Origin: Blasia pusilla
Lineage: Eukaryota
DNA length: 64,000 nt
Assembly (NCBI GenBank): GCA_050084515.1
Contig: CM114271.1
Location: forward strand, 2,604,001-2,668,000
Reading direction: 5' to 3'
Under the pieces are notes generated by a model. It did no database searches, was not told the DNA's origin, and worked only from the letters and a program-made list of their open reading frames with translations. Below are positions 9,101 through 60,607 of the stretch, one piece after another (the stretch's first letter is position 1; each line of letters opens with the position of its first letter). Made by a program: the position numbers and the translations under genes.

Positions 9101-9293
9101 AATCATGAGCCATGCAGGTCATGTGGGAATGGTGTCAGGAGGTAACCAAGGCGGAGGCTATCATCATCAGTCTCAAGCATTCCACCCCTCTGCATTCCAT
9201 CCTCTTCCTGGTGGTGCGGATGGGAACGACAGTGCACAGAGTGGCTCCATGGTGTCCAATGGCTCTCAGCAGACAGCCGTCGCCACTCAATGA
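6130..9293 (+). CDS. NF-YA: Nuclear factor Y subunit A (CCAAT-binding factor B/HAP2), ~281 aa; exons 6130-6154, 6581-6699, 6933-7004, 7261-7428, 8832-9293
   Basis: All introns are GT-AG and the phases join in frame. The product has the plant NF-YA motifs [18 protein letters not shown] and RMPLP, and the core [25 protein letters not shown]...[28 protein letters not shown]. Confidence 0.95.
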
Positions 9294-32747: not shown

Positions 32748-33750
32748 TTTCGTGCGTCTACTCTTCTTGAACGTTAATCTTTGTTTGTTGCGGGAGCGTG
32801 CGTTCGGTAGGTCACGCTCTCAACGTTGATCTGCATCCAAACACGCACTCTCGTTAGTTGGGTTTAGATCAATCAGCGGGCTAACTTTCTGAGGTCTCGT
32901 CTCGGTCTCTTATCGAGCTCAACCTTCCTAGTTTCGTAGTTTATAACATAGGAAAGTCTCGAAAGACTTGGGACAGACTTTCTGGTCGGTTCAGGAACCT
33001 TAAACGGCGTTTTGTGCCAAGAAATTCCAAATGTTCCATGGACATCAAATGAGTCCCTAATTGAGACTCACACAAAATGAATGAAGGGTCGGAATCCAAG
33101 TGTGGCGTATAAAGTCCACTCCCTTGGATCAGATTTGGGTTTTGAGTTCCAAGGCCATACTCTCGTGCCCTTGAGACGCCGTTTGGTGCTCAAAGTGGGG
33201 TTTGTGTTCCAAGACATCTTGGAAAGACTCCATCTTACTAGTACGTTTGGGGATCTCCGGGGTCCTCCTAACTTTAGGGAAAGACAGCCGGGCCCCTCAA
33301 ATTGGCCCTCAACCCGATTGCTCTCACAATCATTTTTGGACAATATCTCAGTCTGTACTAATGCGTTTGTTGAGATCTTTGGTGCGTTGGAAGCGTCTCA
33401 AGATAAGGTTTCTAACGCGCCCTTACTTGGAGCTAAAATTTATGTTTCAAAACATAGTCAAATTCCCCAAACGCTAGTCGTGTTCCAAAACTAGTTCTCA
33501 CCTCTTTAGCAATCAACCTTCCAAGACTCAACTCATCACACGTCTTGGTTCTCGTTTGGTCTAGGTTTCCTGATCGTGACCACTACCGCATGAAACGTAC
33601 AACTTTGTTCTGCGTTTTGTCCCTTGGACTTTTCCAAGAGACCTTCCAAAAGCCTCTCCAAAGCGCGATCATTGTCGCGTGAGTCCACTTGAGTTCTGAT
33701 GTTCCGCTTGGTGCCTATCTGGTGTTCGTTTGGTTATGAGGGTCCCGAAA
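32748..33750 (-). mobile_element. Solo LTR (~1.0 kb) of the chromovirus family with 5-bp TSD ATTGT
   Basis: Collinear with LTR 42154-43170 over its whole length. ATTGT occurs at 32743-32747 and 33751-33755. The termini have decayed to TTTC...GAAA. Confidence 0.9.
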
Positions 33751-37333: not shown

Positions 37334-39603
37334 TCACTGTGCAGAATGGGGGTGGTGCAATGGGAGATACGAGCCACGGTGCCCATTTCTGATCCGGATG
37401 GACTTCTTGGAACCCAGCCACTTCTTCTTGGCAGCTTTTTTCTTTCGTCTAGTCGTGATGAAAGAATAAAGCGGACTCGCTCCGAAGCATGCGAGCAGCA
37501 ACACCACAATCACCGCACAAATGAGCATGACGTTTCGAAATCCATGTTCCAATGTGGGGTCTATTTGCTTCGTCCATGGCACTCCGCCCACATTCATGCC
37601 AAAAGCTGCACATTCCAACAGAAAAGAGCAGTGATCAGTGATCATCCAGGAACCGATTATAGATGGCTGTTACCCTACTTACGATTGGAATTGTTCTCTC
37701 CCACAGTCGACATGATGGAAATGGGAACATCCGACTTGAGGATGGTGAAGCGATGGCTACGGATGGTTAGCACAACAATCCGAATGTACGATGAGTGGGC
37801 CAGCGTTCATCCCTAAGCTGGATGCGGTGGCACAGGCGGATGGTGGGAAATTACCTCCGGTTACGATCGATAATGGAAGGAAGATCATCGACAAAAACGA
37901 GAGGTAGTAGAGCTTGCGATTGATCTGTTCGTTCTGCCAGCTATCTAGACCGGCTTGAATGGCTGCTATTCTGTTGGCAATGAAGCCCACGTTCTCTTTC
38001 AGCTTGCGCAGACGCTGCACCAGGACATCCAGCTCGACGATGTCCTCCGCCGTGCACCATCTCTTGCCTGCGCACTTATCCTTCATTCGCGGGAACACCT
38101 GTTCCCCATGCGCTATGACCTGCAGCAGTCGCTGCAAGTCCAGATGCATCTTAGGAAACCTTCTGTCATCCAGCATCTCCTTCCTCACGACGTAACCTCC
38201 TGAAATGTTCACCACGTAACGCTTTCAACGACAGATGCTTAAGATTCTTGCTGTTCTTCAAAAGCGCTCCGTCTATCTGCGACTCTCGTTGCAAATCAGG
38301 CCTCCACATTTTGAGCCTAGTCCAAAATCTACACATGTGCTTCGCATTTATTTCTCCGAAAGTGGCACAGGAAATCCCAGTGACAGGACCGACAGTTCCA
38401 ATCGCTACCTTCGAATCTATCACGCACGGTGAACATGCTCACGGCAATGGACGACGGAGCGAATTGACGCGACATGATCTCAGAACTAAGACGAGGAAGC
38501 GAAGAAAAGGAACAAAGCGCAGGGAAAGATATAGTCAGGAGCGGGAGAAACGAAGCCATCCCTAAACATTTAGTACAGAGTCCAAAATCTATGCATATTC
38601 GTTGCATTGGCTTCTCCGACAAGTGCATTAGAAAAATTGCAGTCGGTGACAGTACTGACGACAGTTCCAATCGCCACCACGCACAGAGAACGTGTTGGCT
38701 GCAATGATCTACGGAGCGAATTTGCGAGACATACATGATCTCAGAGGAGAGAGGCAGCGAAGTATACCACAAATGAGTACACGGCGCAATAGAGGAGACC
38801 GTGAGGAGCGGAAACAGCGGCAGTGGAATGGGGGACTTACCAGTGTCTAATTCTCGCTCAACATCGTCCAGATCCATCTCGAGCTTGATGACTATGTCCT
38901 GGAGCTGGTCGACGTGCGTGTCGATGATATGTACAAGTAAATTTGACACGCACTTCGGCACCGGATTGTCGGCGTGCTCGGGATGGTTCATTGTCAACAA
39001 GAAGTCCAGCACATGTTCTTGGATCGCAATCCCCCGGGAACTGAGCGGTCCAGGTAAGGGTAGCATCGTATCCAGTTCGGTTTCCAATCTTGGCACCTCT
39101 GTGAGCAAAGACTCCGTCATCACAGATGAGAATTCCAGCCTCGGTATCCTTCCCAGAGAAACGCTGATCACCCTGTCATCCGTGACGAGGGCCGCGATTT
39201 TGTGGGTGAACTCGCTGGTGGTCGGGCCAGCGGAATTGACTCGGAACACCAGTGCACCATCAATCGATCCACAATATGGGCCGTTGCTGACGAGAGCAAG
39301 AATCTCTTGGAGCTTCAAGGGAGGGCAGAAGAGATCGATGAGATATTGAGCGGCCAATGTCAGCCTTTGGTCGGATCTTGGAAGCTCCACGTGAAACCAG
39401 GAGAAGCCTTCCATCTCCCTCTGCTTCAGGTCCCACTCTTTGCTGCTGAATTTACCATGCCCATCGAAAGTGTACGCCGTCTTCTTCACTGCACCTGGAA
39501 ATACGAGCTTATGCTGCCTCCTACCACTGTCCGGTGAAGTTGCGTTGAGCAATTCTGTCTCCGTGTTCGGATCGTCATTGGCGTAGTCGCGATCCTGATC
39601 CAT
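37334..39603 (-). CDS. CorA/ZntB-like divalent cation (Mg2+/Zn2+) transporter, ~459 aa; exons 39603-38841, 38199-37855, 37605-37334
   Basis: GT-AG introns join in phase: MDQDRDY...SWFHVELP...DVERELDT|GGYVVRKEMLDDRRFPKMHL...QINRKLYYLSFLSMIFLPLSIVTG|AFGMNVGGVPW...second TM helix. The CorA GMN signature follows TM1. A 5'-UTR intron acceptor lies at 39649-39650. Confidence 0.92.
38318..38750. repeat. Diverged direct duplication (~260-bp period) in CorA intron 1
   Basis: AGTCCAAAATCTA, TTCTCCGA, GACAGTTCCAATCGC, ACGGAGCGAATT and CATGATCTCAGA each occur twice in the same order. Confidence 0.75.
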
Positions 39604-40019
39604 GGTTTCTTCCCGACACAACACCACTTCCACTCAGTTCTCACTGGCCTGCAAAGTGCTGCGCCGGCATTCGATCACGCAGAGTGCAGATCTCTAAAAC
39701 CCATCATTACCAGCCATGTCTCGAATTCTCGCCCGGAGTCGGGTGGCGTCCGGTCCGATTCTGCAGCCCAATCGAACAACAGGAGTCTACATCTCAGAAC
39801 CTTCCTTTCCGGTTAATCTTTCACCCCATGATTGTGCAGAATCCCAACTCCCTTACCTACACAAACGCACTTCCCGACGCTTCCAGCATCCCGTCACCCC
39901 AATTCTCTCCCGCGCTCAATTCTGCTCCGCCACTCTACCTTCCTCCTCATCAACTTTCCTCGGCTTCTGCTATCCTCCTACTCCTCAGTCCCGCCCTCCG
40001 TCCCCGCGAGCTACCCATC

Positions 40020-42000: not shown

Positions 42001-42153
42001 GACCTATCTTCTTATACGAGGCGGGTCTTATTAAGTTGGAGAGCAGCAAGGCCACAACCCACTTAGGGGAGAGGGGGAAACCCCTAAATCTAACCTTACC
42101 AATAGAAGAAATGCCATTAGCAACGGTTAAAGAATCATGACAAGCAGTAGGAG

Positions 42154-45100
42154 TGTCGTGCGCCTACTCTCCTTGAACGTTAATCTTGTTTGTTGCGGAA
42201 GCGTGCGTTCAGTAGGTCACGCTCTCAACGCATCCAAACACGCACTTTGGTTAGCCGGGACTTGGATCAATCAGCGGGATTACTTTCCGAGCTCTCGTCT
42301 CGGACTCTCTCTTCAAGCTCAACCTTCCTAGTTTCACGGTTTCCAACACGGGCAAGTCTCGAAAGACTTGGGACATACTTACAGTCGGTTCGGGGAACTG
42401 AAAACGGCGTTTCGCGCCTAGCGGTTCCAACAGTCCGATGAACATCCAATGAGTTCCTCACCAAGACTTGTACGAAGTGAATCTCGGGTTGGAATCCAAG
42501 TGTGGCGTACAAAGTCCACTCCCTTGGATCAGGTTTGGGTTTCGGGTTTCCGCGCCAAACTCCCGTTTCATCCCATGCCTCTGAAACGCTGTTTGGCGCC
42601 CAAAGTGGGGTTTCGTTTCCCGAGACATCTCAGAGAAGGTACTCCCCTTGCTAGTACTTCTGGGGATCTCCGGGGCCCCTACATTTAGGAAAGACACCGG
42701 GCCTCATTGGCCCTCAACCCGATTGCTCTCTGAATCGTTTTCGGCCAATATCTCAGCCTGTACTTATGCGTTTGCTGAGATCTTTAGTGCGTTGGAAGCG
42801 TCTCAAGATCAGCTTTCCAACGCGCCCTTATTTGTCCCGAACGCATCTCGGAGCTCAACGTTATGGTCCTAAACACAGTCAGATTCTCCCAAACGCTAGC
42901 CGTGTTCCAAACTGGTTCTCACCTCTTTGGCAACCAACCTCCAAGACTCAACTCATCTCAAGTCTCGGCTCGCGTTTGGTCTAGGTTTCCTGGTCGCGAC
43001 CACTAACGCATGAAACGCACAACTCTGTTCCGCGTTTCGTCTCTTAGACTTTTCCAAGAGACTCTTCCAAACGCCTCTCCAAAGCGCAAACCTCGCGGCA
43101 TGAGTTCCTTTGAGTTCTGATGTTTCGCTTGGCGCGTATTTGGTGTTGTTTGGTTATGAGGGTCGCGACACTCACCCCTCCTTAGAAGGTTGATGTCCTC
43201 ATCAACGCAAACCTTATTGATGTTAAGTTCTGGGAAGCCAACCCCTTAACACAGAATCGCGTTCTGGTAGCTAACCCGCAATTCCTCTTTTTGGCTTAAG
43301 TCTTAGGTTGTCGCTTGCAGCACTTAGACTTATTAGCTTCTCTTTCTCACGAGCCTAGACTAGTTCTGCGGAACTAATCTAACTATCAAAATAAGCTCAC
43401 TAAGTGCGCAACCTAACACTTCACTCACTATTTGTAAACAACCACTTTGTCTACCTAGCCAACTCATTACTACTTTTGGGTCACTTGTACTCCACCTAGG
43501 CGCGTCACTAAGTTCAGTCATGAAACATGAATGAGATCACCACAAACCCCAAGACAGACTCATCTCCCTTCCGACGTTAGGGCGAGCCCAAATGCTAGTA
43601 CTTCAACACTTGGTCCTAATCTAGATGCCTTATCCGAATACAAGCTCTCACCTCAAATACTCATTGTTTGGTCTCCTTGACTTACATCCTAAGCATATGA
43701 AGAACTACTCATTGCCTTGCACAAACCAAACTCAAAATTACAATACAAGCATCGAATCTCCAAATCCATGTCTTCTTTATTGCAACAACTAAACCTTTCT
43801 AGTTACAACGGGTTATCGGCCCAAGCTTTCCGGTCACAAGTTATGTCCATTGCTTCACCATGTACTAACGCACGTGCCTTTCTTGCATCCATCTGAAGTC
43901 ACACAATGCTTCTTACGCATGTTCTAGATCCGCCTCCGCAATCCAAGTCGCCTCTTTCACATGATAGCCTTTCCACTTAACCAAGTACTAGTACTTGGTG
44001 GCCCTACGTCTGGAACGCAGAATAGTCTCAACCTCGAACTCTGGTTCCTCATTTTTGATGACCGGTTGTGGTCTCAACATCCTCCTTCGCTCCGGACGCA
44101 CATTGTCTTGAAGATACTTCTTCAATAATGACACATGGAAAGTCAGGTGAATCTTGAACTCGTTTGGCAACTCCAATGTGTACACATCCTCAAACGGCCT
44201 TGCCTTGATCACATACGGTCCAGCATACTTGGCTGACAATTTCGCGGACAATTCCTTCGGAAGAGTGAGATTCTTAACACTCAACCACACTTGTTCCCCA
44301 ACTTGGAAACTCACTTGGCGCCGACTTTTGTTAGCATGCTTTACGTACCTTAGTTGAGCCTTGGCGAGACTTTCTCTCGCTTCGCTCTGGTCGTTCTGCA
44401 TTTCCACTAACAAACATTCCGCCGTTGCTTGACGAGTGTGTGTCGATGTATTGCCCTTCGAAAAGAGCTAAGTCAAGAGGCCCTTCGGTTCTCTTTGATA
44501 CGCCAGAAGAAACGAAGATTCTCCGGTTGCAGAATGCTTAGTCGAGTTGTAACAATACTCAGCCATACTTAACCACTTGGCCCAATCTCTTTGGTCCGCA
44601 CTCACGTAATTCCATAAGTATTGGTTTACGATCGAGTTTAATTTTTCCGTTTGCCCATCCGTTTGAGGATGGAAGGCCGTACTAAAGCTGAGTTTGGTCT
44701 GGAACCTCATGAATAGATGTTTCCAAAAGGCACTGGTAAACTTTGGATCCCGATCGGACACAATGCTCCTAGGCAATCCGTGCGCACGCCACCAACCATC
44801 CAGGAATAGTCGGGGAAGTCGTGTAGGCCGTCGGACTCTCTCGTCGGCACAAACCTCCCCAACTTGCTAAACCGATCAACTATCACAAGTATAGCGTTGT
44901 ATCCCTCAGATTTTGGAAGACTCGTAATGAAATCCATGCTAATGCTTTGCAAGGGTCCCTCCGGGATTGGCAAAGGATGAAGTAAACCTTGTTTCTTCGC
45001 ATAAGACACGCGGTTTGCCTGGCGGAGTCACATGTTTTCACATATTGAGCAACATCTTCCTTCATGTTGGGCCGGAAGAACCTCTTAGAAAAAAAAAAAA

Positions 45101-48100
45101 AGCAAGAGTGGATTTCTCCCTTTGTGTCCCGCCAAAGGTCCATCATGACATTCCACAAACACCTTGGTCCATAGCTTGCCTTGGCCTACATAGATCTGCT
45201 CTGCTTAAACCTTAGCAAGCCGTGTCTCAAACTCAGATTGGCCACCTTCTCGCCCGCTTTAACTTCCCAAGGTACTCCTCGCTTGCTCATCCTTCATGTA
45301 TCCTTCACTTAATCCTTCTTTCCAGGTCTGTTTCATTAGGGAACATTGCTCTCAACACTTGTGTCGATGGCATGTGTTCATCCTGCGACTTAACGATCTG
45401 GAATGACATTATCTTTCCCGGCTTATGGATTAGCTCCACATTCATCAACGCCAAGGTATCATGCCACGAAGTTGTTTTTGCGCCACGCGATCCTGGGTCT
45501 CAAAATACTTGAGCGATATGTTATCGGTGAATACTCGAGTCTGTGAAGTCCCAAATAGTGACGCCACTTCCTCAAGCAATGAACCACCATAAAAACTCTT
45601 TCTCATGAGTAGGCCGTCTCCTTTCGTGTCGGTCAACTTCTTGCTTTCGTATGCTCTGGTCTCCCTTTTGCACCAACATTCTTGCAATCGCGAAATCACT
45701 AGCATCCGTGTGCACCTCGACGGTTGTTCAAACTCCGGAAGCTTGAGCGGTTCTGCGAGAGGATCTCTTTGACTCGATTGAACGCTTTATCCACTTCCTC
45801 GGTCCATGTAGTATTGGAAAACTTTGCGGTCCAATCCGTGAGAGGTTTCACTATGCCCGAAAAGTTCTTCACGTATGTCCGGTAAAACTGGACATCTCCA
45901 ATGAACCTTCTCATCCCCTTCACCGTGGAAGGCGGTTCCCATTCGGCAATCGCGCTCACCTTTTCCATGTCTGGACTCACTCCATCCGCACTAACCACAT
46001 GCCCCAAGAACTTGATCTTCGTCAAACCGAACTCACTCTCTTATCCGCATTCGCATACGACTTGTTCGCCTAAGTTTCTCAAACACCGTCTTCAAATGTC
46101 GAGCGTGCTCCTCTAGTGTCTTCGAATAGATGAGTATGTCATCTATATAGATGATCATAAACTCATCCGTCTCCTTGTGAAAGATGGAGTTCATCAAAGT
46201 GGTAAACGTCGGAGGCGCATTACAAAGACCGAAAGGCATTACTACAAACTCGAACGAACCGTATCTCGTCCCTGAGCAGTCTTCTCTACATCCGCCGGCA
46301 ATCCGAATCTGATAATATCCTGATTTCAGGTCAATCCGGCTGAAATACTTGGCACCCGACAATCGATCAAAGAGGTCATCCATCCTCGGTAGAGGATAGT
46401 TATTCCTTACCGTCACTTTATTCAGCGCCCGATAATCAACACAGAGTCTCAACTTCCCATCCTTCTTCTTTACAAAGAGGACGGGCGCCCCATAAGGTGA
46501 CTTGCTTGTTCGGATGTAACCCCTCTCTAGGAGTTCACCCAACTGTTTCTTCAACTCAGCAAGTTCCTCTTGATTCAACCTATATGGTGCCTTTGAAGGT
46601 GGTTGAGATCCTGGTATCACCTCAATCTTATGATCAACCGCCCTATGTGGTGGCAACTCAGTCGGAAGCTCCTTAGTCAACACATCTTCAAATTCTTTCA
46701 CAACTCTCTTGAGTGTTTCAGGGATCCCCCTTGAAGCTGAGTTCTGATCTCTGCGAAGCATCTGAGTGCGAAGCATCTGTATCAACGAGCAACATCACAT
46801 TGCGATTAGCAATCTTGGATCCTAGGTAAACCAAATTGGGCGTTCTCTTGGTGACTTGTAGAGATGTATCTAGATCTCCCTCCGATAAATGCTTAGCGGC
46901 AAACGCAATCATACTCGGTTTACTAACCTTGGGCCTAACACATTCCTTAGCCATATGCCCGGGTTCGCCACAATTGTAGCAAATCACTTTGGCATTCGCT
47001 GACTTCGTAAACGGCGGCCCCTTTGGCTTCGCGTTGAGTTCCACTCGTTTCGCCGCTGGGGCAAGAGACCCTCCATGGTCACGCTCACCCCCATTCCAAA
47101 CCCTCTTGGATGTCCCTTTGTTCTTCTGTAACTTAGAAAAACTTTTTGTCTCAAAGGGTTTCGGGTGTTGGACTTCATCGTCCCCAATCCGCTCGGCTAG
47201 TCTCAAGAGGTCCGCGCACGTCTCTGGGATGTGAGGCATACGAAAGAGAGCCTTCTTGGCACTCGGTTTGAGCCCACTTAGGAAGATCACCTTTTTAGTA
47301 TGTTCATCCGTGGAAAGTGCACTTATGAGCGCACTAAACTCTCGCACATAAGCGCCAAGTGATCCACTCGGCGCAACCTCACCACCTCCATGCCATCGCG
47401 GTACTCTGATATTCGGAGTGAATCGGTTCCCAATCAACTCCTTGAAATCTTCCCAACTCAACGTTTTCCCACGACCTAGATGTTCTTTGCGGTGAGCCGT
47501 CCACCAATGGAGAGCGTGATCCTTCGTAAACGTGACCGCTCTGATCACCTTGTCTTGTTCATCTGCTTTTGCGCTCGAAATAGAGTTCGAGTTCCGTTAG
47601 AAACTCGCTCACTTTCCGAACGCCCCATTCCTATGAATGGCGTTGGCAAATTAGTCTTACAAAGCTTCTTGCCGTAACTAGAGGCTCCATTTGACTTGAA
47701 TTCGATATCACCTTGCTCTGTTCAGCCATCTGGTCCGCCATCACCTTCATCAATCCCATCATTTGGGTATAAAAGGCCGGATCGTTTAAGTTTGGACCCA
47801 AAGGTCCCGCGGAAAGATTTTCGGTTGGAACATCCTCATGTCAGGACTCGGCACTTCGAGTCATAAATTCCACCTCCGGCTCTCGGTCCGTCATTGATTC
47901 GTCTCTTGGCTTTTTGCTTTGACTCGCGGTTTCCTCGATTCTTCGCCCTTGGTCGCCATTTTTCGTCGCCTTTTCTCAGATCTCCTCCTCGCCTCTTGCG
48001 TTCCTCCTCGGCGTCGCGGTCTTCCGGCTACCTTGAGTTCTCCCCAAACTTCCAGATCTTCAACGACCCCAAGTTCACGCTCATCAAGGAATTTCTCTGA

Positions 48101-49126
48101 TACCACGTGTCGTGCGCCTACTCTCCTTGAACGTTAATCTTGTTTTTTGCGGAAGCGTGCGTTCAGTAGGTCACGCTCTCAACGCATCCAAACACGCACT
48201 TTGGTTAGCCGGGACTTGGATCAATCAGCGGGATTACTTTCCGAGCTCTTGTCTCGGACTCTCTCTTCAAGCTCAACCTTCCTAGTTTCACGGTTTCCAA
48301 CACGGGCAAGTCTCGAAAGACTTGGGACAGACTTTCTGGTCGGTTCAGGAACCTGAAACGGCGTTTCGCGCCTAGCGGTTCCAACAGTCCGATGAACATC
48401 CAATGAGTTCCTCACCAAGACTGCACGAAGTGAATCTCGGGTTGGAATCCAAGTGTGGGCGTACAAAGTCCACTCCCTTGGATCAGGTTTGGGTTTGGGT
48501 TTCGCGCCAAACTCCCGTTTCATCCCATGCCTCAAACGCTATTTGTTTGGCGCCCAAAGTGGGTTTCGTTTCCGAGACATCTCAGAGAAGGTACTCCCCT
48601 TACTAGTACTTCTGGGGATCTCGGGGCCCCTACATTTAGGGAAAGACACCGGGCCCCTCCAATTGGCCCTCAACCCGATTGCTCTCTGAATCGTTTTCGG
48701 CCAATATCTCAGCCTGTACTTATGCGTTTGCTGAGATCTTTAGTGCGTTGGAAGCGTCTCAAGATCAGCTTTCCAACGCGCCCTTATTTGTCCCGAACGC
48801 ATCTCGGAGCTCAACGTTATGGGCCTAAACACAGTCAAATTCTCCCAAACGCTAGCCGTGTTCCAAACTGGTTCTCACCTCTTTGGCAACCAACCTCCAA
48901 GACTCAACTCATCTCAAGTCTCGGCTCGCGTTTGGTCTAGGTTTCCTGGTCGCGACCACTAACGCATGAAACGCACAACTCTGTTCCGCGTTTCGTCTCT
49001 TAGACTTTTCCAAGAGACTCTTCCAAACGCCTCTCCAAAGCGCAAACCTCGCGGCATGAGTTCCTTTGAGTTCTGATGTTTCGCTTGGCGCGTATTTGGT
49101 GTTGTTTGGTTATGAGGGTCGTGACA
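42154..49126 (-). mobile_element. Full-length Ty3/Gypsy chromovirus LTR retrotransposon (gag-PR-RT-RH-INT-chromodomain), frameshifted
   Basis: LTRs at 42154-43170 and 48108-49126 (TGTC...GACA) are near identical. TSD AGGAG at 42149-42153 and 49127-49131. PBS TGGTATCAGAG on the minus strand (48105-48095). PPT AAGGAGGGGTGAG (43183-43171). Motifs [47 protein letters not shown] and FEVETIL...YLVKWKGY. Confidence 0.97.
43912..47900 (-). pseudogene. gag-pol of the chromovirus, broken into many frames
   Basis: ORF pieces 46718-47548 (gag/PR), 46033-46785 (RT), 45699-46025, 44468-45009 (integrase) and 43988-44413 (GPY/F region and start of chromodomain). Confidence 0.9.
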
Positions 49127-51101
49127 AGGAGGGCCTCTAACAATCACGTTTCCCATAGCTTGAGCCCATTGTACATGCTCATTGGCTTGGGCACACTACA
49201 AAGTGTTGGACACTCGTTGTCAACAATATAAGAGTTGTCACGTCTCTTAGGATAGATCGGTGAGATCTAGTAGAGAGCCTTCGTGAGTAGCGGAGGACAG
49301 GCCCAGTAGGTCGAGGATGACCTGTTGAGTATGTGATCAACTTTCTATTTTTGGTAAGTGGCCCTTGACCTCCTACATGAGGTCAAGAGCCAAGGAGGTG
49401 ACTTGGGAGCATAGGTTACCATGGAGAGAGCTTGGGAGGAGGAAGGGGTATACCTCAAGGAGAGAGATTTAATCTTATTTTACAAAGAGAGAGTGAGAGA
49501 GCTTCTGTTTTTGCACGTTGGGGACCGTGTTCCCCGTTTAGCAGCTCACCGGAGCAAGGGCTGCTTTGATTGTTCTTTGCATTTGCCGATTTTTCGTGTG
49601 GAAGAGTGGCGCGCGGAAGCGTTGCCCAATTTCTGATAGGGATTGATTATGGGGGCAGGTTGCCCCATGCCGGTGCTCTCGGGAGCACCATGTAGCTTGC
49701 TGATTTGTATTTTTACAGGTTTTACATTTTTTTGAGGAGAAATCAGGGCGGAAGCGCAACCAAATTTTATGTAGGAGAAAGAGACATTGGGCTTCACGAC
49801 TGTCCCTGTCAGTTTTTACTCAAATGTTTGATTCCAAATATTTTTTATGATGTTGTAGATTTTGAAGTTTTGCACATTGTACAACAAACAATGCGCAATT
49901 TGAAGTTGCGAGCAAAAAGTTATGGTCAATCTTGCAAAACTTCCATTGCTAGGCGATTTTTAGGGTTAAATTGTTCAAACCCTAAACCAGCCGCCGCGCC
50001 AGCGGCAATTGTCTCCGTCATAGTCACCGTTAAGTTTCAACCATCACCGTCGATGCTCAACCGTCACCGTCACCGTCACCATCAACAGTCCGTCGTCACC
50101 ATTAATGGTCAACCGTCACCGTCAACGGTCCACCGTCCATCGTCGGTCGCTGCCGTCGCCTAGCGCTGCTCATAGCCACGTTCGGCCGTTGTCCACCCTT
50201 TGGTTTCTATTGCCGCCATTATGGAGTGGAGGGTCTTCCACGACCACCGTTGATTCTCTGACTTGCGCCGCCACCACGTACTTTGGTTTGGCCGCCACCG
50301 TCATCGCAGTTTCGTCATCAACCAGTGATGGTAGGTGACCTCGAGTTATGGTGTTTGAGTTTTTCATTTCATGTTTCTATGTTGTGATTGGTAGCTTCTC
50401 AACAACGATCGAGAACCGTGCCGTGACACCCATAGCCGCAACGCGCTGCCGATTGCCGCGTCGTGCCGCTCGTGGCCGCACCGCATTGTCTCGATCGCGG
50501 AGCCGCTCCTTCACTAAGGAGCAGAGCGTGTGAATTTTTGATTGAGTAGGGTATGCCGCCAAGTGCCGCACGCCATTCCTGAGTGCCGTGCCGTTTGTAG
50601 CCGCTCCGTGCCGCGAGTGCCGCACTGGACCATTGGACCTGCAACGCACATCGAGGAGGTTTGAGCACCGTCAATACGAGAGGAGTACGACTTGCTCATT
50701 GGAGGAGTTGTCTTTACGACCAAGTTGGGGTCGAGATTTGCAATTACCGAGGAGCGACATCAATATTATTGTCAGGTTACCCATTCTGGTCTCTTACCCT
50801 TCACGTATGAGGGATTTCCGAATATTGGGAAGTTATTTGGGATATTGGGTTTCGTGTTGATGCTAGGAGCATCGATGATGTATGGGTTTAGGGGACATAG
50901 ACTTGTGTGGGATGTCCAAAGTTGAGGATGGTTTGTTGATGAGATGATAGATAAGTGATTTTCCCCACCACGCTGCTTGTTGCCGCACAACACACGTCTT
51001 AGTGAGAGAGTGTAGATTGAGTGCCGCATGTTTAGTTTGAGTGATTGAGGGATTACTCGCGAGATTGAGAGTGATCGTGTGAGAGGGGCACAAGGGCCAT
51101 C

Positions 51102-53670
51102 ATGGCATCCTTTCGGGATTTTGAGAGGCGAGGTAGTGGACCTGAGAGTAGCTCAAGAGGGTTTACCCGGAGTGGTGCGAGGTTTCGAGGGTCTCCATGT
51201 GAAGGACCACCTCGATCTCCTTTTGTGTCATCTTCAAACGAGGGGGAGCGTGTAGAGGAGTGTGTTAGTGATCCACCGTACACATTGAGTGGTCGTTGGG
51301 CGTACGAGATGGACGACCGGGATAGAGGACCACGTAGGTTTTCGGATGCTATAGGCACTATAGAGCTACACGACTTCATTGCGGAGTTTAAGAGTTGGTG
51401 TGACTCACAACGGGCTAGGTATTGTAAAGAGTTCAACATGTTTACGACATGGAACGGTATGTTCTATTATTTAGAGGGGGCGCCCATGGACGATTACCAT
51501 GAGTTCTCCCACAGTTATGCCCAAGAGATTGAGGCATTGCGACTCTACTATGACCCACACTATGTGTCATAGACGGAGCCGTTCCCAGATGAGGAGGAGG
51601 AGTCAAGAGAGGTTATTTCCTCTTCCACTAGTGACATTTTAGGAGGGGTCTCTCTCACTGGAGCAGTTGCACCGTCTAGTCGGATTCGTCCCACGTTCAA
51701 CCTGTGGTTGAGTTCTTTGTTGAGTTGAGGGCAAGCTACCAGGAGGTACGGACGGAGAAGTTGCGGAGCATCCACAACTTCCAGAGGCGCCCGAGTGAGA
51801 GTTTGCTTGAGGCTTACACTCACTTGCGCCGGTTGATCAACGTCACTCAGGGGTGACAAAGGCTCAGGCTATCCAGTCATGGTACGCGATGTTGGACCGG
51901 ACCCTACAGACACGGGTACGGGAGGGGATGCTTCTTATGAACACCTCCCCTATATTGAGAGATGTTGTTAGGACTGTCAAGAACATTGAGCGCAATATGG
52001 AGGAGGAGAGCGTAGCCACCATGGGTTCTAGGCGAGAGCAGTCACGATTGTCTGCACCACATGTGCAGCAATGTGGACTTCGAGATAGGTCGAGTGTGGC
52101 ACCACGAGCTGAGGGAAGATACCGGGAGGGCGTGCCACAGAGACATGCGCCCTCATATGCGGCTTTGCAGCAGCCGCCTACTATTACTTGTTGGTCATGT
52201 GGTGGAGCCCATCATCAGCGCGATTGCACTCGTCAGGGTCACGGATGTATGCCTCAGCATGGAGGAGGAGATGTTGCTACACCAAGAGGTTATCAATGTG
52301 ACTATTGTCAGAGGTATGGTCATACACGCGCCAGGTGTTTCAGTTTACATCTTGAGTTACATGCGGACCAAGGGCTAGAGAGGGCACCAGAGCGAGTAGC
52401 CAGTCCGGGTGCGCTAGAGATCATGCACCAAGTGGTCTTGTTGGGGGACGAGGAGCTCGAGTTGCTCGACATGGTGGTGGAGCTGCTTATGGAGGAGGTA
52501 GAGTACAACCACCTAGACGCGCCGACAGAGACACCGGACGTGAGGCTGGGATGGCTGTTCAGATACAGCAGCTACATGAGCAAATTGCCGCTATGGCATT
52601 GAGGTTACTCGATGCCGGATCCGTAGAATCGACATCATATGGAGCAACCAGAGTTATGGAGGATCCTGGTTGGATGTGCGGGGTTGCCCAGATGGAGGCC
52701 GCCGCGGTTGTGACGCGTGGAGCAACCGCAAAGTTGGATCCACAGCGAGGGGAAGCCATGAAACACACTAGGCTTCCTCAGTCTTTCACGTTGTCCAAGG
52801 CGATGAGGACTCCATCCATGGGTCCTTATCAGAGTTCCTGGAGAGTTGGTGATGTTGTTAGTGTGCAGGCACGGAGAGCGATGGGAGAAGCAAGTGCGAC
52901 GACTCCTATTGTTGATGCTCATGAGGTGCATGTTTCGAGCACGTTGTTGGGGGCGGCCACTGTTGTGTACCGCACTCCTTTATTTTCTGCTTCCGATGTT
53001 ATGACGTTGGGGGGTACGTCGGCGAGGCTTTTCGGCTGGCCGCTTCACTATGTGAGCGCAGAGGTGGAGTTCCTGCATCATGTTCAGAGGTGATTGCAGA
53101 GGAGGTGATGGACCTGCCCTTGGAGCGAGTGATCGGCGCGTCCATGTCAGATTCATGGCAGGCTGTGGCTGCTAGGATGGCGGAGATGCCCGCTAGATCC
53201 GCGATAGAGCGTGCCATGGCTTCTCCTGGTGTTGTGTTGTTGGATAACTAGGGAGAGGTCTTCCACTTGGTGAGTCCCGGAGGTAGAGCTTTTAAGCCGC
53301 AGCGCGTCTTGTTGGATTTAGGAGCGCAACCCCTGATGTTGGGGAAAACGTCATTTAGAGGATTGGGCTTGACGAGAGTCAATGTGGAGCGTTGTCCATT
53401 CTGTGTACAGACATCCTTGGATGGCGCGAGTACCACACAGTATATCACCCGAGAGGAGTTCGTGGTGAGGATTCGCCCTGGACATCCTACAGATAAGTCG
53501 GTGGTGCGAGCCAAGGCGATAGTGATTGATGCAGAGTCCTACGACGTCTTAGTTGGTGGAGCAATGTTATACCCGATGGGGTTTTCCCTGGATTACTGGG
53601 AGGAGTCAGCGTCCTACACACCAGGATGGCAGTCAGATGATGGGCGCCTTAGCTCATTACACGTTTGATT
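51102..53670 (+). pseudogene. gag with two Cys/His knuckles and an aspartic protease (decayed)
   Basis: CWSCGGAHHQRDC and CDYCQRYGHTRARC lie in ORF 51853-52602. The protease RVLLDLGAQPLML...YDVLVG lies in ORF 53267-53668. Confidence 0.8.
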
Positions 53671-54027
53671 CACAAGTGCAATGATCGAGCGATGGCCAAG
53701 AGAGTGGCGACCTTAGCAACATTTAGCAGTGCCATCACTTGGCCTAGTGATTTGATTGAGGGACATGTCCATGCAGAAGATACCCCCGTTCGGGACATTT
53801 CTATGGAGAGGAGTGTTATGGTAGGCGCATCATTCCGTGGAGGAGAGGTGCGGTTGTGGGGCTCGACTGAGGAGCTTCGACGATTTGCAAATGAGCACGT
53901 GCAGACCGCGTGGAGCGAGATGTTTGCACCAAAGCGTGATGGGTCTGAGGAACCCGAGGTAGCAGGGAGTGCTACGCTGACACCCTTGGATACCACACCC
54001 ATTGTGTGGCGTATTCTGGAGGAGGAT

Positions 54028-54980
54028 ATTCATGTGTTAGATCTCTTTGGAGGGATAAGCACCGGGTTAGCTGTTGTTTTGCAAGCAGGAGTGCGACTGC
54101 ATCAGTACCTGTATGTGGAGAGTGATGATGTTGCAAGGCGCCTCTCACTACGACATGTGGCGCAGTTATGCCTACGTTTTCCCAACTTGTTGTCTGCATT
54201 CGCAGTACAGGGGTTCCAGAGTTCCCTACCGAGGGATATTTCGTTGCTGGGGGTGCAGGACTTGGAGCGGGTAGGGACCATTGATTTGGTCATTGCAGGT
54301 TGGCCATGTCAAGGTCAATCGAGTGCTGGACGAGGCATCGGGTTGGTTGACACTCGATCCATGTTATTTTGGGAGATGTTGAGGGTCTTGAGATATTTGC
54401 AGGAGCATCAGTCCCATTCTCCGACTTACATTCTGGAGAATGTACCGATCTTGGGCGATTCAAGGTCACGGGTGGTGACGAGTGCACATCAGGTGCGTGC
54501 CTAGATCGGCCTAGCATTAGTTTTGAATGCGGCGAGTGTGGGTTCTCGAGCACATTGCCCGCGTCTATGGTGGACAAACATGGTACCACACGAGGTGTTG
54601 CGGAGGGCGTATGCAAGAGTAGAGCACCCCTCCCACTTGTTAGTGGATTCCATTCAGGATCCGGGCATCGATCATAGGCAATAAGGCACGATGATCGACC
54701 ATCATTGACTGTGGTCAACAGGGTAGGCCGGCCACGAGCAACTTTTCCCACGTTTGTGAATTTTCCCGGTTCCTATGCATACAAGGAGGCCAATCTTGGC
54801 TTCGTTTGGGATGATCAGGTTCAGAGGTTGGTGGAGCCCAACGCCGACGAGAGAGAGTGGGCGATGGGATTTCCCACAAGAGTGATGGCACTACCGTCAG
54901 TGTCAGAGGCATCACGACGCCATGTCTTGGGTCACGCAATGGACCTGAACTGCTTGACATGGATCTTCAGCTTGGGAGTG
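54028..54980 (+). pseudogene. C5-cytosine DNA methyltransferase domain embedded in pol (one premature stop at 54502-54504, one frameshift at ~54665)
   Basis: Motifs occur in canonical order: I VLDLFGG, II YVE, III RDIS, IV DLVIAGWPCQG, V DTRSMLF, VI YILENV, VIII SRAH(C)PRLWWTN, IX EREWAMGF, X LGHAMD. Confidence 0.93.
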
Positions 54981-55319
54981 GCTGGAGCAACGTTGCATGA
55001 GATTGCGACACATCACAGCGGTTGCGTTGGTGAGCCCCATGCCTACCGAGACGGTGGAGGCAGTGGCTGGGGGCGAGACTCGAGGAGATCGACACACCAA
55101 GGGAGATCAGGAGAGACACCCTTGGACTTCTTGGGATGTTTTGCAGGTACGCTAGGAGATGATAGCCACAGCGTCGAGCGTGGTTTAGGGCAATTCATGT
55201 GGAGGAGATCAGAGTTTGCAGTTGGTTGCAGGAGAGCGGCCAAGTGTTGGTGTTCGAGATAGGGTTGCACCATAGCAACCATCGATACCCGCGTCGGAGA
55301 GTCCTACCGCAGTCACGAT

Positions 55320-58240
55320 GGAGACTTGGGAGCCAGATATGGGCCCTAAGTTTATAGGAGAAGAGCGGCACCGGATACATCAGTTCCTTAGGAGTTATAG
55401 AAGCTGCTTTGCATTTAGCATGGAGTATTTGGGTACTCTGAAGGGATCATGGATCCACATTGAGTTGTCGAGTGATACGCCAATCTTCCAACAATCCTAC
55501 AGGTATAGTGATATGGAGAGGGCTCTGATTCAGAGTAGAAGCCAGGACTTGGTTGGAGCATGACGAGTGGAGATGTCGCATGGGGAGTATGCATCTGCCA
55601 TTGTCATGCATGCCAAGAAGGATGTGCATGGCAACTGGATGGATAGGCGGATGTGTGGGGATTATCGGCTTATCAATCGGCGGACGAAGTCTGATAGGTA
55701 TTCCAAGCCCACTCCAGAGGAGATCTTTGATGCGATTGGTCACCCAAAGGTCTTTAGTTCATTGGATTTGTGAGCCGGATACCATTAGCTGCCTATCAGA
55801 TTGGAGCACAAGCAAAAGACGGCATTTTGGGGCATCGATCCTCACGGGAAGGATTGTTTATACCAGTGGCCGTTCTTGCCATTTGGGTTAAAGAATGCCC
55901 CGGCTGAGTTTCAGAGGGTCATGGATAGGATCTTGGCAGGTCAGGATTTTGCTAGGTGTTACAATGATGACATCGTAGTCTTTAGTGCCACAGTTGAAGA
56001 GCATGAGCGACATCTAGAGGAGGTGTTTCGACGATTGCAGTTACATGGGCTGAAGCTACATCCAAGAAAGTGTAAGTTCTTCTACGACCAGATTGAGTAC
56101 TTGGGTCATACGATATACCCATGTGGCCTTGGTGTTCAGCAGACAAAGGTAGAGGCTATTTCACGCATTCCCCGCCCTACAGATGTGAGCCGCGTTCGTG
56201 CATTCATGGGATTGGCGAACTTCTATCGGCGGTACGTCAAGCAATTCAGTTTGATTGCGAAGCCACCGACCTTGCTGACCAAGATGGATCATGAGTGGCA
56301 CTGGGGGGATGAGCAGGAGCAAGCATTTCAGCTGCTCAAGGACAGATTGACGTCTGCGCCCATCTTGAGGAGACCGATCAGGGGGGGTTCCTTTCCAATT
56401 GCACATAGATTGGAGCATGTTGGGGCTTGGAGTGGCGCTCACCCAACATGATGATGAGGGTAGAGAGTTCGTGATGGCTTATGCTAGCCGTTCGAACAAC
56501 GTTGCAGAGGCCAAGTATAGCTCGTATGAGGATGAGTGTTTGGCTATGATGTGGGCTGTCGCACATTTTAGGTGTTACTTATTCGGAAATCCCTTTACCA
56601 TCATCACTGATTATCAACCACTAAATTGGTTGATGGAGTCCGAAAAGCTTACACGGAAGCTTGCAAGATGGGCTCTGTTGCTACAGGAGTACGATTTTTA
56701 GGTGGTACATCGACCAGGGATGGTCAACTAGGATGCAGATGGGCTAAGTTGTAACCCATGCCCGAGTGAGCGAGGTGAGACTGGAGCTTGATGGCATGGA
56801 GAGAGTGATGAGGAGTTAGTGCCAGGATGGCACGCGTCAACCTATTTAGGCTTGTTGGCTATGGAGAGCCAAAGTGTGGAGACTTTGATAGCGAGGTCTG
56901 ATGGAGAGTCCTTGGATCCCAAGGCCAATGAGGAGACGACATGTGGCCGAGATATTCATGATGATGGAGTAGTCTTGGAGTATCTGCGTACTGGCAGCGT
57001 TGCGATTACAATGGGTGCTAGAGAGCGGGATTGGGTCCTATAGCGGGCTAAACGGTTCCGCTGGGAGGGGACACATGTGTTGCAAGTGTGGGAGAATGAT
57101 AGAGTGCGTGTAGTGCCTCATCCTTTGCACAGAGCACATTTGGTGCATCATGCCCACAAGGAGTTTGGTCATTTTGGAGTGAAGCAGACATATAGCTTGC
57201 TCCAGATTCAATATTGGTATCGAGGCATGCAGAGTGACGTTTAGCAGTTTGTTGTCAGATGCATGGTGTGTGATTGAGTCTAAGCATCGTTCAATGCTCT
57301 AACTCCACATTTGCATCCACTTCTGATCATGGGTTTAGGTTATAGATGGAGTTTGGATTTTGCAGGACCTTTGCCTTTGACGGAGCACCATAGTGGTTAT
57401 GTATTGGTGATGGTCGAGCACTTCTCAAAGTGGATAGAGTTGGTTGCATTGCCTGACAAAGCGAGTGAAGGAGTAGCGTATGCCTTCCTAGATCGAGTGC
57501 TGAGTCATTACGGCGCACCAACTGAGGTGTTGACAGACCAGGGTACAGAGTTTCGCGGAGAGTTTCAGGCCTTATATGATTAGGCACTGATCGACCACCG
57601 CACTACTTCGCGAGATCATCCTGAGTCGGATGGACTAGCGGAGTGGGTTGTGCAGACGGTGAAGAGAGGACTACGCAAGTATGGCTTGAAGAGAGGTCAT
57701 CTAGGAGATTGGGACCTTCAGTTTCCGTGGTTGGCGATGGGATACAGATTCAGCAGGCAGACATCCTTAGCGTCTTTCTCACCGTACTTGTTGCTTTATG
57801 GCCGTGAGCCAGATTTACCTACGGCCATTCGTTGAGATACTGGTGAGGTGTTGAACCTTGATGACCCTGATGTATGGATGCAAGCATGTTCTGAGAGGGT
57901 TGAGTTGTTTCGAAGAGTCATGCCCATGGCGTTTGAGAACTTGGCGATTGCGCAACATCGGGATACGTTGAGGTATGCGACTATTCGGGGAGGTGGTTAT
58001 CGACCTCCTATCCGGAGGTTTCATCAAGGAGACTATGTCTACTTGCAGCACACGGCATCCACGACGTTGGATGTGACTACAAGGCACACCATCTTGAGAG
58101 TGCGTGAGGTTTTGCCATATGGTGTTCTCTTATTAGAGGGACGCGATGGTATGGTTTGGAAGGACCATGTGCGTAACTATGCGCCATGTCATCTTCCGAA
58201 CATTGATGGTACAATTGATCCGAGCTTAGCAATAGTTCCT
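55320..58240 (+). pseudogene. Reverse transcriptase, RNase H and DDE integrase of the DNMT-carrying element (stops and frameshifts)
   Basis: RT: RRMCGDYR, LPFGLKNAPAEFQR, CYNDDIVVFS. RNase H: DWS...AYASR...ECLAMMWAV...TDYQPL. Integrase: WSLDFAGP...LTDQGTEF. Confidence 0.92.
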
Positions 58241-58249
58241 CTAGGCTTG

Positions 58250-58393
58250 CGGTGTATGTTTTGTGGTTCCGCCCGTGGTGCAGCTACTATGCTAGTATGT
58301 GATGGATGTTCGAGAGGATGGCATATGGCATGTTTGACGCCATCTCTCACTAGGATTCCTCAGGGACGATGGATGTGTCCCAAATGTACATAG
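58250..58393 (+). other. PHD finger (C4HC3) at the integrase C-terminus
   Basis: RCMFCGSARGAATMLVCDGCSRGWHMACLTPSLTRIPQGRWMCPKCT*, in frame with the integrase tail (ORF 57848-58393). Confidence 0.93.
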
Positions 58394-60074
58394 AGTAGGT
58401 AGTTCTACATTTCGACTTGTGTCTTTGACATGGATGACAAGAAGTCGACTAACGATAGGGCCACATGAGCACCCGATCTTCTTGCTCTTAGCGTCCAAGA
58501 GATGTATATCATGGTAGGTAGGGATAGATGGCTATCTGGAATTAGAGGGACCTAACCACCAGCTAAGGGGGCGATTGGAGATATTTTGGTACTTCTTGTC
58601 TTGTTGTTTGGATGTCATGAGTTAGTAGGGGATCGTGCGTGTTTGTGTGTGTGTTCAGTGACAGCAATTTATGTTGTGTAGCGATGTGTATGCGCACGAC
58701 AGTTGTCACGTCTCTTAGGATAGATCGGTGAGATCTAGTAGAGTGTCTTCATGAGTACAGACTGAGTAGGTCGAGCATGACCTGCTTAGGCCGCGGGAAA
58801 CTTGAGATAGCAGGTTTCCCCTTCGTTTCGGCTCATTTGGAGCCGTATTGAGGAACTTACTATTTTAGGTAAGTACCATTTTGAGTATGTGATCAAGTTT
58901 CTATTTTTGGTAAGTGGCCCTTGACCTCCTACATCAGGTCAAGAGCCAAGGAGGTGACTTGGGAGCATAGGTTACCATGGAGAGAGCTTGGGAGAGGGGA
59001 GGGGTATACCTCAAGGAGAGAGAGCTTGAGAGCTCATTCTCTCTTTGTTGAACTTCTTGGCATAAGGCGGCGGAGCTATGGTCCCTTGCCTTGTGAGTGT
59101 AACCCAAGCCTCTCATTAGGAGAATGGGTTTGGTTTGTCATAAGAGAGAGTGCACACCTTTGAGAGCTATGGTGTGAGATGGTGTAGAGAGAGATTGGAT
59201 CTCACTTTATTGGTGATATTTTGGTACTTCTTGTCTCATTGTTTGGATGCGATGAGTTAGCATGGGATCATGCATGTTTTTGTGTGTGTTTGGTGACAGC
59301 AATGTAAGTTGTGTAGCGATGTGTATGCGCACGACAGAGTACACTAGCTCAAGATAACCCATTTCTCAAGTGGAGAAGATGTGCACAATTAATAAAAAAA
59401 GCATCAAACCTCTCACCCGTAAGCTCATGAATTTCAATAACTAATGGGACAAAATTATATTCTTTGCAAAGACAACTATAATGTAAAGTCCTCTTCCATG
59501 CCTCTGTCGGCGATGTTCCTTATATCTCCCTCATGAAATCATATGTGCCCAAATTGACTCCCATGTAAAATATGTAAATACAACATAAGTTACCATCACG
59601 TTAGCCTCTCGTGGCATGTATATGTCATGTATTTCTTGAGTGAAAAAGATGGGTGAACTCGGCAAGGAAAACATCAACCGATTCAAACCTCTCACCAAGA
59701 GCCCCATAATCTCAATAGCCCTCGCACCTATTCATCCTCGGGTTAAAGGGTTAGACGTGGGTTATGTTTGAAGAAGGGCTCGTGCAAAAAAGGCAACATC
59801 TGAGGGGACTCGAACTTGGGACGTACACCTTCTTAGTGATTGTACCATCCACTCCACTTGAGTTTCATGCATGAAAGGCATGGAATTAATAAAACTCTTA
59901 ACAGTTATCCAAAATAGAATATGTGGCTTCAAGATCTTGACCTCGAGTTAACTAATCCGAGGATGAATAGGCTGAAGGTCAATAGCTAATTTTCACGAAT
60001 AGTTGAGTCTATGGCACCCACACTAGCGGGGGATCCGGGAAGCAAGTCATGATCGCGGGTCCAAGGAGGAAATA

Positions 60075-60538
60075 TGTCACGTCTTTTAGGATAGATCGAC
60101 GAGATCTAGTAGATCGCCCTCGAGGATAGTGGAGGATAGCCTTAGGAGGTCGAGGATGATCTACTAAGGCCACGGTAACCTGAGAGAGAAGGTTTCCCCT
60201 TTCCCTTCATTTGAAGCCATATAGAGAAACCTTACTATTTCGCGTAAGTTTCCGTTTTGAACATAGTTGACTTTATAATTTGGGAAGTGGCCCTTGACCT
60301 TCTACAACATGTCAAGAGCCAATGAGGTGACCTGCAAGCATATGTTATCAGAAAGAGAACCTCCAAGCATAGGTTATTGTAGAGAGAGTTTGGAAGAGGG
60401 AAGGGGTATACCCAAAGAGAAAGGGTTTGGGAGCTCATTCTCTCTTTGTTGAACCTCTTGGCATAAGGCGTCGGAGCTATGGTCCTCCTTGACTTGTGTG
60501 TGAAACCCAAGCCTCTAATTAGGAGAGTGGGTTTGGTT

Positions 60539-60607
<69 letters not shown>

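Follow-up and report, generated by a model that had tools for sequence, protein, structure and literature searches.

The PHD finger encoded in the window (the whole stretch of Blasia pusilla DNA analysed here, 64,000 nucleotides long) is a C-terminal accessory domain of the integrase in a Viridiplantae-wide lineage of Ty3/gypsy retrotransposons. The same element carries a DNMT3-like methyltransferase. The pairing of a chromatin reader with a DNA-methylation writer is real; it is of a known kind, and the two domains are unlikely to be directly coupled. New here, in that we did not find them in the literature searched, are the predicted leaky stop between the two domains, the split repeats with 4-bp target duplications and an internal CA-RY-TG junction in an element that has a DDE integrase, and the range of the DNMT+PHD lineage among green plants.

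The explanation that we prefer as a whole, and whose chances we put slightly above even, is that Gag-PR-DNMT and INT-PHD are separately dosed, that the integrase cuts a junction between the ends of the element, and that the finger tethers it to H3 tails. The architecture, copy number, selection, repeats, target-site duplications (TSDs) and conserved stop on which it is based are observed, and from them we infer all four steps of the mechanism.

A gypsy element with split repeats

It is near certain that the element, which extends from 49236 to 59336, is a Ty3/gypsy retrotransposon. It starts with TGTCA, ends with GACA and has GAGT on either flank (Table 1). Its domain order, gag-PR-DNMT3-like, UAG, RT-RH-INT-PHD, includes the PR-RT-RH-INT order of Ty3/gypsy elements, and further traits of this group are present: a DD35E integrase, H2C2, TG...CA ends and a 4-bp TSD. 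The integrase of a sister copy has the Ty3 and PFV integrases as its best matches, both in sequence and in fold. Paired identical LTRs are absent, however, and split repeats arranged as A1-body-B1-A2-B2 are found instead; no obvious tRNA primer-binding site starting with TGG was seen by eye after A1. The element is therefore gypsy by its enzymes but non-canonical by its ends. The window copy itself is dead and decayed. The window also contains nested and adjacent elements.

Table 1. Features of the retrotransposon in the window (positions counted from the first base of the window)
Feature	Position	Strand	Basis or remark
Left 4-bp target-site duplication GAGT	49232..49235	+	same 4 bases at right end
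Repeat A1, left terminus, TGTCA start, partly deleted in the window copy	49236..49504	+	84% and 96.5% to A2, in two pieces
gag remnant, broken, two CCHC-type zinc knuckles	51306..52437	+	tblastn vs ORF1 of intact relative L051; knuckles in translation
Aspartic protease, LLDLGA at 53309, stops	53171..53686	+	tblastn E 1e-28 to L051 ORF1
DNMT3-like C5 methyltransferase domain	53998..55022	+	PF00145; one stop and one frameshift in the window copy
Conserved in-frame TAG followed by CAA-CCA, between DNMT and RT	55273..55281	+	CAR-YYA leaky-stop context
Reverse transcriptase and connection, 3 stops	55282..56376	+	PF00078; tblastn 58% to L051 ORF2
RNase H, integrase (H2C2, DD35E), beta-strand C-terminal domain	56390..58168	+	PF17917, PF17921, PF00665; 9 stops in frame
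C4HC3 PHD finger, of the unmodified-H3-reader type by sequence	58253..58387	+	PF00628; stop TAG at 58391-58393
Polypurine-tract-like AAGGGGG, directly 5' of repeat B1	58565..58571	+	sequence; putative function
Repeat B1, CA at end	58574..58701	+	89% to B2
2-nt spacer of internal junction CA-GT-TG, two element ends facing each other	58702..58703	+	sequence
Repeat A2, TGTCA start	58704..59208	+	~91% to 5' terminus of other copies over 505-519 bp
Repeat B2, right terminus, GACA end	59209..59336	+	repeat comparison
Right 4-bp target-site duplication GAGT	59337..59340	+	matches left GAGT

Repeat A1 is complete in other copies, where it measures about 505 bp, and matching 4-bp TSDs are found in 7 of the 9 other copies in which both ends were read (the exceptions are L021, which is nested, and L029). 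The B1/A2 junction, CA-NN-TG, has a purine-pyrimidine spacer (GC, AC, GT or AT) in 16/16 copies, and the same holds for all 11 genomic matches called as junctions. The split-repeat layout, whole or partial, occurs in 5 of the 16 metagenome loci examined (L063, L071, L099, L109 and L111), and the intact relative L051 has a B|A-type junction with a G-run 5' of it. We propose, as the third step of the mechanism, that plus-strand synthesis would begin, during reverse transcription, from the purine tract that precedes B and yield a circle or a tandem with a B|A junction, and that the DDE integrase would then cut at CA-NN-TG and insert A-body-B-A-B, with a 4-bp duplication. Opening the B|A junction of such a circular or tandem intermediate would give exactly an A-body-B-A-B insertion with a 4-bp TSD. 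If this is true, the opening of a palindromic circle junction by a DDE integrase differs from standard LTR elements.

Other classifications were considered. DIRS, PAT and Ngaro elements use a tyrosine recombinase and are not known to make a TSD; the DDE integrase and the 4-bp TSDs rule out membership of these groups. Nor is the element a chromovirus: the PF00385 chromodomain is absent from P0001, and the frame ends one residue past the finger. Phygy elements prefer NCGN targets (PMC6317226); there is no such target among the terminal flanks listed, where CpG decay could hide some, and the tree has no Phygy reference.

The genome contains at least 1,921 copies of the family (exact matches to one internal pattern) and 2,838 matches to the B end of the element. 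The copies show about 90% identity to one another, C-to-T changes being found mainly in CG and CHG; they are present on all large contigs, and on the listed part of contig 1 the insertions look dispersed. Tools that look for pairs of LTRs are likely to overlook or wrongly delimit thousands of copies in this genome, because the repeats are split. Two stranded RNA runs from one study cover the whole element, mainly on the sense strand, with a depth that increases toward the 3' half. Most of the reads are 85-95% alike and none reaches 99%, so that they would originate from other copies or from a related species. A search of sequencing runs returned no RNA run among the matches listed, with shares of at most 0.06.

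The PHD finger and its predicted ligand

The finger is at the end of a stop-to-stop frame of 185 aa (57836-58393, + strand). Its translation matches Pfam PF00628, the family against which it was to be checked, with E 1.2e-11, 44.9 bits (cut-off 24) and eight ligands. RNase H and the integrase (H2C2 at 57149-57271; DD35E formed by D 57356, D 57536 and E 57641) share its frame, which confirms that a C4HC3 PHD closes the integrase frame. The finger was also said to be intact, which is correct for the finger alone: the RH-INT-PHD frame of the window copy has nine stops 5' of it. The unbroken INT-PHD fusion is seen in open frames of 786 and 584 aa in other copies, and in one of 1,047 aa in L051. 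The position of the finger matches that of the chromodomain of chromoviruses only roughly: it is indeed at the C-terminus of the integrase, but a beta-strand C-terminal domain (CTD) precedes it, and a relative from Chlamydomonas eustigma has a PHD plus a separate SH3 and chromodomain further 3'. An alignment-based model (pLDDT 75) predicts an integrase fold, then the beta CTD (model residues 466-510), then the finger.

We give practically no credit to the idea that a fragment of a host gene, a chance nested insertion or a domesticated gene accounts for the finger. The nested and adjacent elements of the window would make a chance fusion conceivable, but all 150 scored genomic matches (from 14,055 candidates) span the CTD and the finger at 83% or more, 119 of the 120 public homologs listed carry PF00628 (the query contained the finger), and the window copy is full of stops. 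These family data rule the idea out. The ligands of the finger are intact in 20 of 30 matches, a biased sample in which the copies were chosen by likeness to the finger.

Among the best 60 of 89 PDB matches, those at the top are CHD4, PHF12, KDM5A/B-PHD1, DPF, KAT6A, BHC80, AIRE, ATXR5 and UHRF1, most of which we take to be readers of unmodified H3. In PHD fingers that read K4me3, the cage Trp stands two positions before the His ligand. It is there in none of the 144 parsed fingers (134 have G, 6 A, 2 F and 2 P), nor, by eye, in 12 further unparsed ones. K4me3 reading is reported to require this Trp, and the PHDs of AIRE, BHC80 and UHRF1 to read unmodified H3 (PMC3214078). Judged from its residues, the finger is not a K4me3 reader.

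K4me0 readers of the AIRE/BHC80 type have an Asp before Cys1, for K4, and an Asp after Cys3, for R2 (PMC3214078). The latter is present in 137 of the 144 fingers, including that of the window copy, and an acidic residue precedes Cys1 in 102 of them (66 have Asp at -3). The finger of the window family has several basic residues and no acid in the five positions before Cys1, so its discrimination of K4 may be weak. It is probably an A1-R2 binder whose selectivity for K4 is uncertain.

In intact relatives, dN/dS is 0.05-0.06 for the PHD and 0.11-0.12 for the DNMT: both domains are under purifying selection. The values in decayed metagenome copies are an uninformative 0.91 for the PHD, on 48 codons only (L065/L102), and 0.54-0.59 for the DNMT. 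The finger is a conserved part of the integrase, and its likeness to H3-tail readers makes integration targeting our best guess for its predicted function. In the fourth step of the mechanism, the PHD would tether the intasome to H3 tails with free A1 and R2 and with K4 either unmethylated or loosely read, and insertions would be steered off H3K4me3 promoters.

It could be instead that the finger makes no choice of chromatin state, and is either a general anchor to A1-R2 of H3, K4-blind like UHRF1, or a component of the intasome that has a structural role or binds nucleic acid. This would fit the basic residues and the lack of acid before Cys1 in the window family, the presence of copies on all large contigs, and the fact that the PHD of UHRF1 recognizes R2 and is hardly selective for K4 (PMC3214078). 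We consider this unlikely, since most relatives (102/144, 66 with Asp at -3) have kept the acid before Cys1, and since intergenic insertion is 2.6x expected in a PHD-bearing Chlamydomonas Gypsy of unrelated domain order, a bias that selection could also explain (PMC9940879).

A conserved stop between the methyltransferase and the reverse transcriptase

The DNMT of the window matches PF00145 with E 2.3e-10. Motifs I (54037), IV (GWPCQG, with its PC, 54298), VI (ENV, 54430), VIII, IX (54834) and X (54927) are present, and the window copy is broken. For the DNMT of sister copy P0003, the closest solved relatives are DNMT3A/3B/3C (E 1e-12). The catalytic Cys and the EN are retained in 193 of 218 DNMT domains, and the Pro preceding this Cys is substituted, mostly by Glu, in most relatives. 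A single-sequence AlphaFold model of the domain had a pLDDT of 30 and was left unused. Two annotated Marchantia proteins, Mp_2g26090 and MARPO_0091s0058, belong to elements of this kind and should not be taken for host DNMT3 genes.

The original prediction placed a reader and a writer in one retroelement. This holds insofar as the DNMT lies upstream in the same element, but the two do not share an open frame, with a conserved UAG lying between the DNMT and the PHD. In the intact relative L051, two ORFs of the same frame, gag-PR-DNMT (1,369 aa, with a protease segment that matches PF13650 under the curated cut-off) and RT-RH-INT-PHD (1,047 aa), are separated by TAG-CAG-TTA. The sequence is TAG-CAA-CCA in the window and in 17/17 aligned copies, and UAG-CAA-CCA is in frame in 1,778 of the 1,921 genome-wide matches. 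At the matching place, 23 of 29 metagenome loci have TAR-CAR (19 TAG-CAR and 4 TAA-CAA); three others differ, and three are frameshifted and unreadable at the stop. Many relatives have CCC as the second triplet (CAA-CCC), one base off CAR-YYA, and in some (P0018, P0019, P0111) DNMT and RT are fused without a stop. Chance deamination of CAG to TAG is ruled out as the origin of the stop, with one CAG in the first 100 matches and TAG in 92.6% overall.

The type I (TMV) readthrough signal, UAG-CAR-YYA, is in frame and conserved in the window family. In plants it is reported to give about 6-10% readthrough (PMC2754532), and retroelements are said to need about 20:1 Gag:Pol (PMC2194720). With such a conserved leaky-stop context, the DNMT would be made at the level of Gag, and INT-PHD rarely. 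The first step of the mechanism would be the translation of the sense RNA mainly as Gag-PR-DNMT; few ribosomes would pass UAG-CAR-YYA and add RT-RH-INT-PHD, so that INT-PHD would be scarce, while the DNMT, abundant and associated with the particle, would act on the new cDNA (self-marking). In the second step, the protease would cut the domains apart. The TMV-type leaky stop and the in-frame stops of MuLV, SIRE1 and Tca2 likewise set a product ratio (PMC2754532, PMC2194720), but the stop of the window family comes after the protease and the DNMT, which would make an epigenetic enzyme part of the product that is plentiful. Retrotransposons that carry a DNMT are known; from the conserved stop follows an answer, open to testing, as to the dosage and the place of the enzyme.

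Another hypothesis, highly improbable in our opinion, is that the stop is programmed but bypassed by way of an internal promoter, splicing or re-initiation, with targeting as in the preferred explanation. The flanks of the gag-stop-pol junction of Tca2 direct no readthrough in yeast (PMC2194720), the last base of the hexamer is variable, and RNA depth is higher toward the 3' half, but a 3' bias is common in RNA-seq, the two ORFs share a reading frame, distant families likewise have CAR after the stop, and no splice joint passes over the stop among the joints listed (34 further ones are outside this list).

In the preferred explanation, the PHD and the DNMT are co-inherited but would act at separate steps. 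A related and rather doubtful reading is that, in an ancient gypsy lineage of green plants, the leaky stop provides DNMT3 at capsid stoichiometry, that each particle marks the cDNA inside it by methylation before this integrates, that the DDE integrase opens a palindromic circle junction, and that the PHD, as a reader of H3K4me0, directs the pre-methylated copy to silent chromatin; the cooperation of reader and writer would then be one of timing, not of contact.

Lineage and known relatives

The PHD is present in 42 of the 43 DNMT-seeded proteins in which 180 aa or more follow an integrase (of the 150 in the set, 18 have shorter tails and 89 no integrase). At the DNA level, both PHD and DNMT are found in 22/22 metagenome loci with enough flank, of 77. 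On a tree of RT-RH (209 rows, FastTree, SH supports only), the elements that have both form one lineage. The co-occurrence on the RT tree that had been anticipated is therefore found, but it reflects shared descent in one clade, with losses in both directions, and is not independent evidence. The DNMT precedes RT in streptophyte members, and it lies between RH and INT in chlorophyte members (Chlamydomonas, Pleodorina, Tetrabaena and Haematococcus, a group at SH 99). The tree of the DNMTs (FastTree, no host DNMT3 out-group) agrees with that of RT-RH, the DNMTs upstream of RT being one group (SH 100); the DNMTs as a whole would have a single origin.

The DNMT has been lost and the PHD kept in P0074/P0079/P0103 and in P0394, and the reverse is seen in the Closterium group and in P0224. 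The PHD persists next to decayed DNMT catalytic motifs in P0078, P0099, P0034, P0039, P0061 and P0063; the C. reinhardtii protein is an example of an intact finger beside a decayed DNMT. As far as these sequences tell, the two domains are separable and were lost independently in both directions; the natural losses of either one are ready contrasts for the targeting question.

These observations bear on a version of the module that the original prediction suggested: the PHD would recognize H3K4me0 and bring in or stimulate the DNMT3 of the element, as the ADD domain does for animal DNMT3, methylation being written at the landing site. It would be consistent with the near-universal co-occurrence (42/43 and 22/22), with a finger that looks to be of the unmodified-H3 class, with the purifying selection on both domains, and with the chlorophyte elements, whose DNMT directly precedes INT-PHD in one frame. 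We nevertheless find this coordination very unlikely. The finger has its match in PF00628, and with E allowed up to 0.01 Pfam returns PHD families only, none of them an ADD. Unlike an ADD, which adjoins the catalytic domain of the DNMT, it is 3.2 kb and one stop away: the DNMT ends ORF1, the PHD ends the downstream ORF past the conserved UAG, and separate, differently dosed products are predicted in the window family. Moreover, losses went both ways, the PHD was retained beside decayed DNMTs, and the domain order is switched between clades.

The nearest named relatives of the window family are from Calypogeia and Marchantia, and the sequences compared place the DNMT+PHD lineage in both chlorophytes and streptophytes (including bryophytes, Coleochaete and Closterium). 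The family is in the same 42-row group (SH 84) as rows from Klebsormidium nitens, inside a 63-row group (SH 97; FastTree). KnitGypsy-Dnmt3 from this alga (de Mendoza et al. 2018, PMC5890265) is described as having Gypsy domains, repeats of the DIRS type and, within pol, a domain related to DNMT3, like the window element. The window family shares with Gypsy-DNMT3 an unrearranged DNMT3-related domain in the polyprotein, DIRS-type split repeats and the grouping of its RT with K. nitens proteins, whose rows are not tied to the sequences of that paper. There, KnitGypsy-Dnmt3 is presented as having been acquired along the K. nitens lineage, whereas the lineage found here is wider (Calypogeia, Marchantia, Coleochaete, Closterium, chlorophytes): what looked like a Klebsormidium acquisition becomes a Gypsy-DNMT3 lineage that extends from chlorophytes to bryophytes. 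A streptophyte and dinoflagellate range is restated in the text available of PMC12344493. PHD has no mention in the main text and supplements of PMC5890265 that were searched, although Fig. 4c could show one; one K. nitens protein in the streptophyte part of our RT-RH tree (P0399) bears a PHD. The accessible parts of the same paper describe no leaky stop, and report that KnitGypsy-Dnmt3 expressed in yeast gave no methylation, a result that its authors deem inconclusive. A literature search, whose coverage largely excludes subscription papers, theses and Repbase notes as well as figures and supplements on bioRxiv, yielded no paper on Gypsy-DNMT3 of bryophytes or chlorophytes or on the stop of these elements, and PMC5890265 alone on split repeats in gypsy elements.

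EpiLTRs (bioRxiv 10.64898/2026.05.21.726589) are likewise reported to unite a reader with writers in a single LTR element; unlike the window element, they carry a chromodomain, a Dam and a DNMT that is sister to DNMT4; the text available of this preprint separates them from streptophyte Gypsy-DNMT3. Chromoviruses, as described in REXdb (PMC6317226), resemble the window element by a histone-reader domain at the C-terminus of the integrase; they differ in that the window element has no chromodomain, has split repeats rather than paired LTRs, and has a DNMT.

The PHD by itself is unsurprising: its presence on retrotransposons is in print and is described as common (PMC6673714, PMC9940879, PMC8557442, bioRxiv 2021.11.30.470311). 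For REM1, for Gypsy-7a_cRei (PMC9940879), and for the CR1 and Chlamys elements (PMC6673714, PMC8557442), an accessory PHD has been proposed to guide insertion or to act on chromatin, as here; unlike for the window element, no DNMT is mentioned in the available text of these papers. No literature support was found for Selgy elements as PHD carriers. According to its legend, Gypsy-7a has the PHD before INT (PMC9940879), as opposed to the C-terminal finger of the window family, and this order is also that of the out-group proteins P0401 and P0405.

Family copies and the internal junction

The copies of the studied element's family in the same genome (L011–L030) share approximately 90% pairwise identity, and the two A repeats, A1 and A2, of one copy are 91–99% identical (main matches, L011–L030), which suggests a family history of old, repeated bursts. 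Family pieces are nested or adjacent in at least 5 of these 20 loci.

The internal junction, where B1 meets A2, may be read as the palindrome GACA-GC-TGTC (58698–58707), a reading that also applies to the metagenome loci L063, L071 and L099. Since the intact relative L051 has the spacer GT, spacers other than GC do occur. The spacers AC, GT and AT could be deamination products of CAGCTG. Among family copies, the C-to-T rate is highest in CTG (0.137), followed by CG (0.091), CAG (0.087), CCG (0.055) and CHH (0.021).

Neighbouring elements and genes

The two LTRs of the neighbouring canonical gypsy element are 96.7% identical to each other, and about 110 bp separate the end of this element from the start of the studied one. 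No B repeat was detected with the A-like segment downstream, which is possibly a solo remnant. As for genes, the Atlas cluster of the CorA-like gene is for the most part Streptophyta, and the 17-residue motif is presumably the NF-YA DNA-binding motif.

Genes and neighbouring elements in the window
Feature	Position	Strand	Details
Exon encoding a 17-residue motif	8808–9293	+	
Solo LTR	32750–33748		81%; related to the LTRs of the gypsy element
CorA-like transporter gene	37757–39633	−	introns; weak Pfam match
Canonical gypsy element, distinct from the studied one	42153–49126	−	gag, zinc knuckle, RT; 1-kb LTRs
A-like segment, related family	60075–60553	+	75% to A2

Domain layouts of related proteins

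The Marchantia proteins P0329 (Mp_2g26090) and P0335 (MARPO_0091s0058), which rank among the closest named relatives of the studied element, are element proteins with the domains PR-DNMT-RT-RH. A cluster of plant/algal elements also contains P0299, whose label, "uncultured Synechococcales cyanobacterium", probably reflects bin contamination.

P0401 and P0405, gypsy proteins outside the green-lineage DNMT+PHD clade, combine a PHD finger with a Dam domain (PF05869). In P0401, whose finger is placed between RH and INT, this gives a second arrangement of reader plus writer. The chlorophyte-type members P0038, P0040, P0060, P0088, P0140 and P0224 have extra domains of one kind or another: a G-patch can separate DNMT from INT, a Tudor domain of the PTM/DIR17-like type can be present, or SH3 and a chromodomain can follow the PHD finger.
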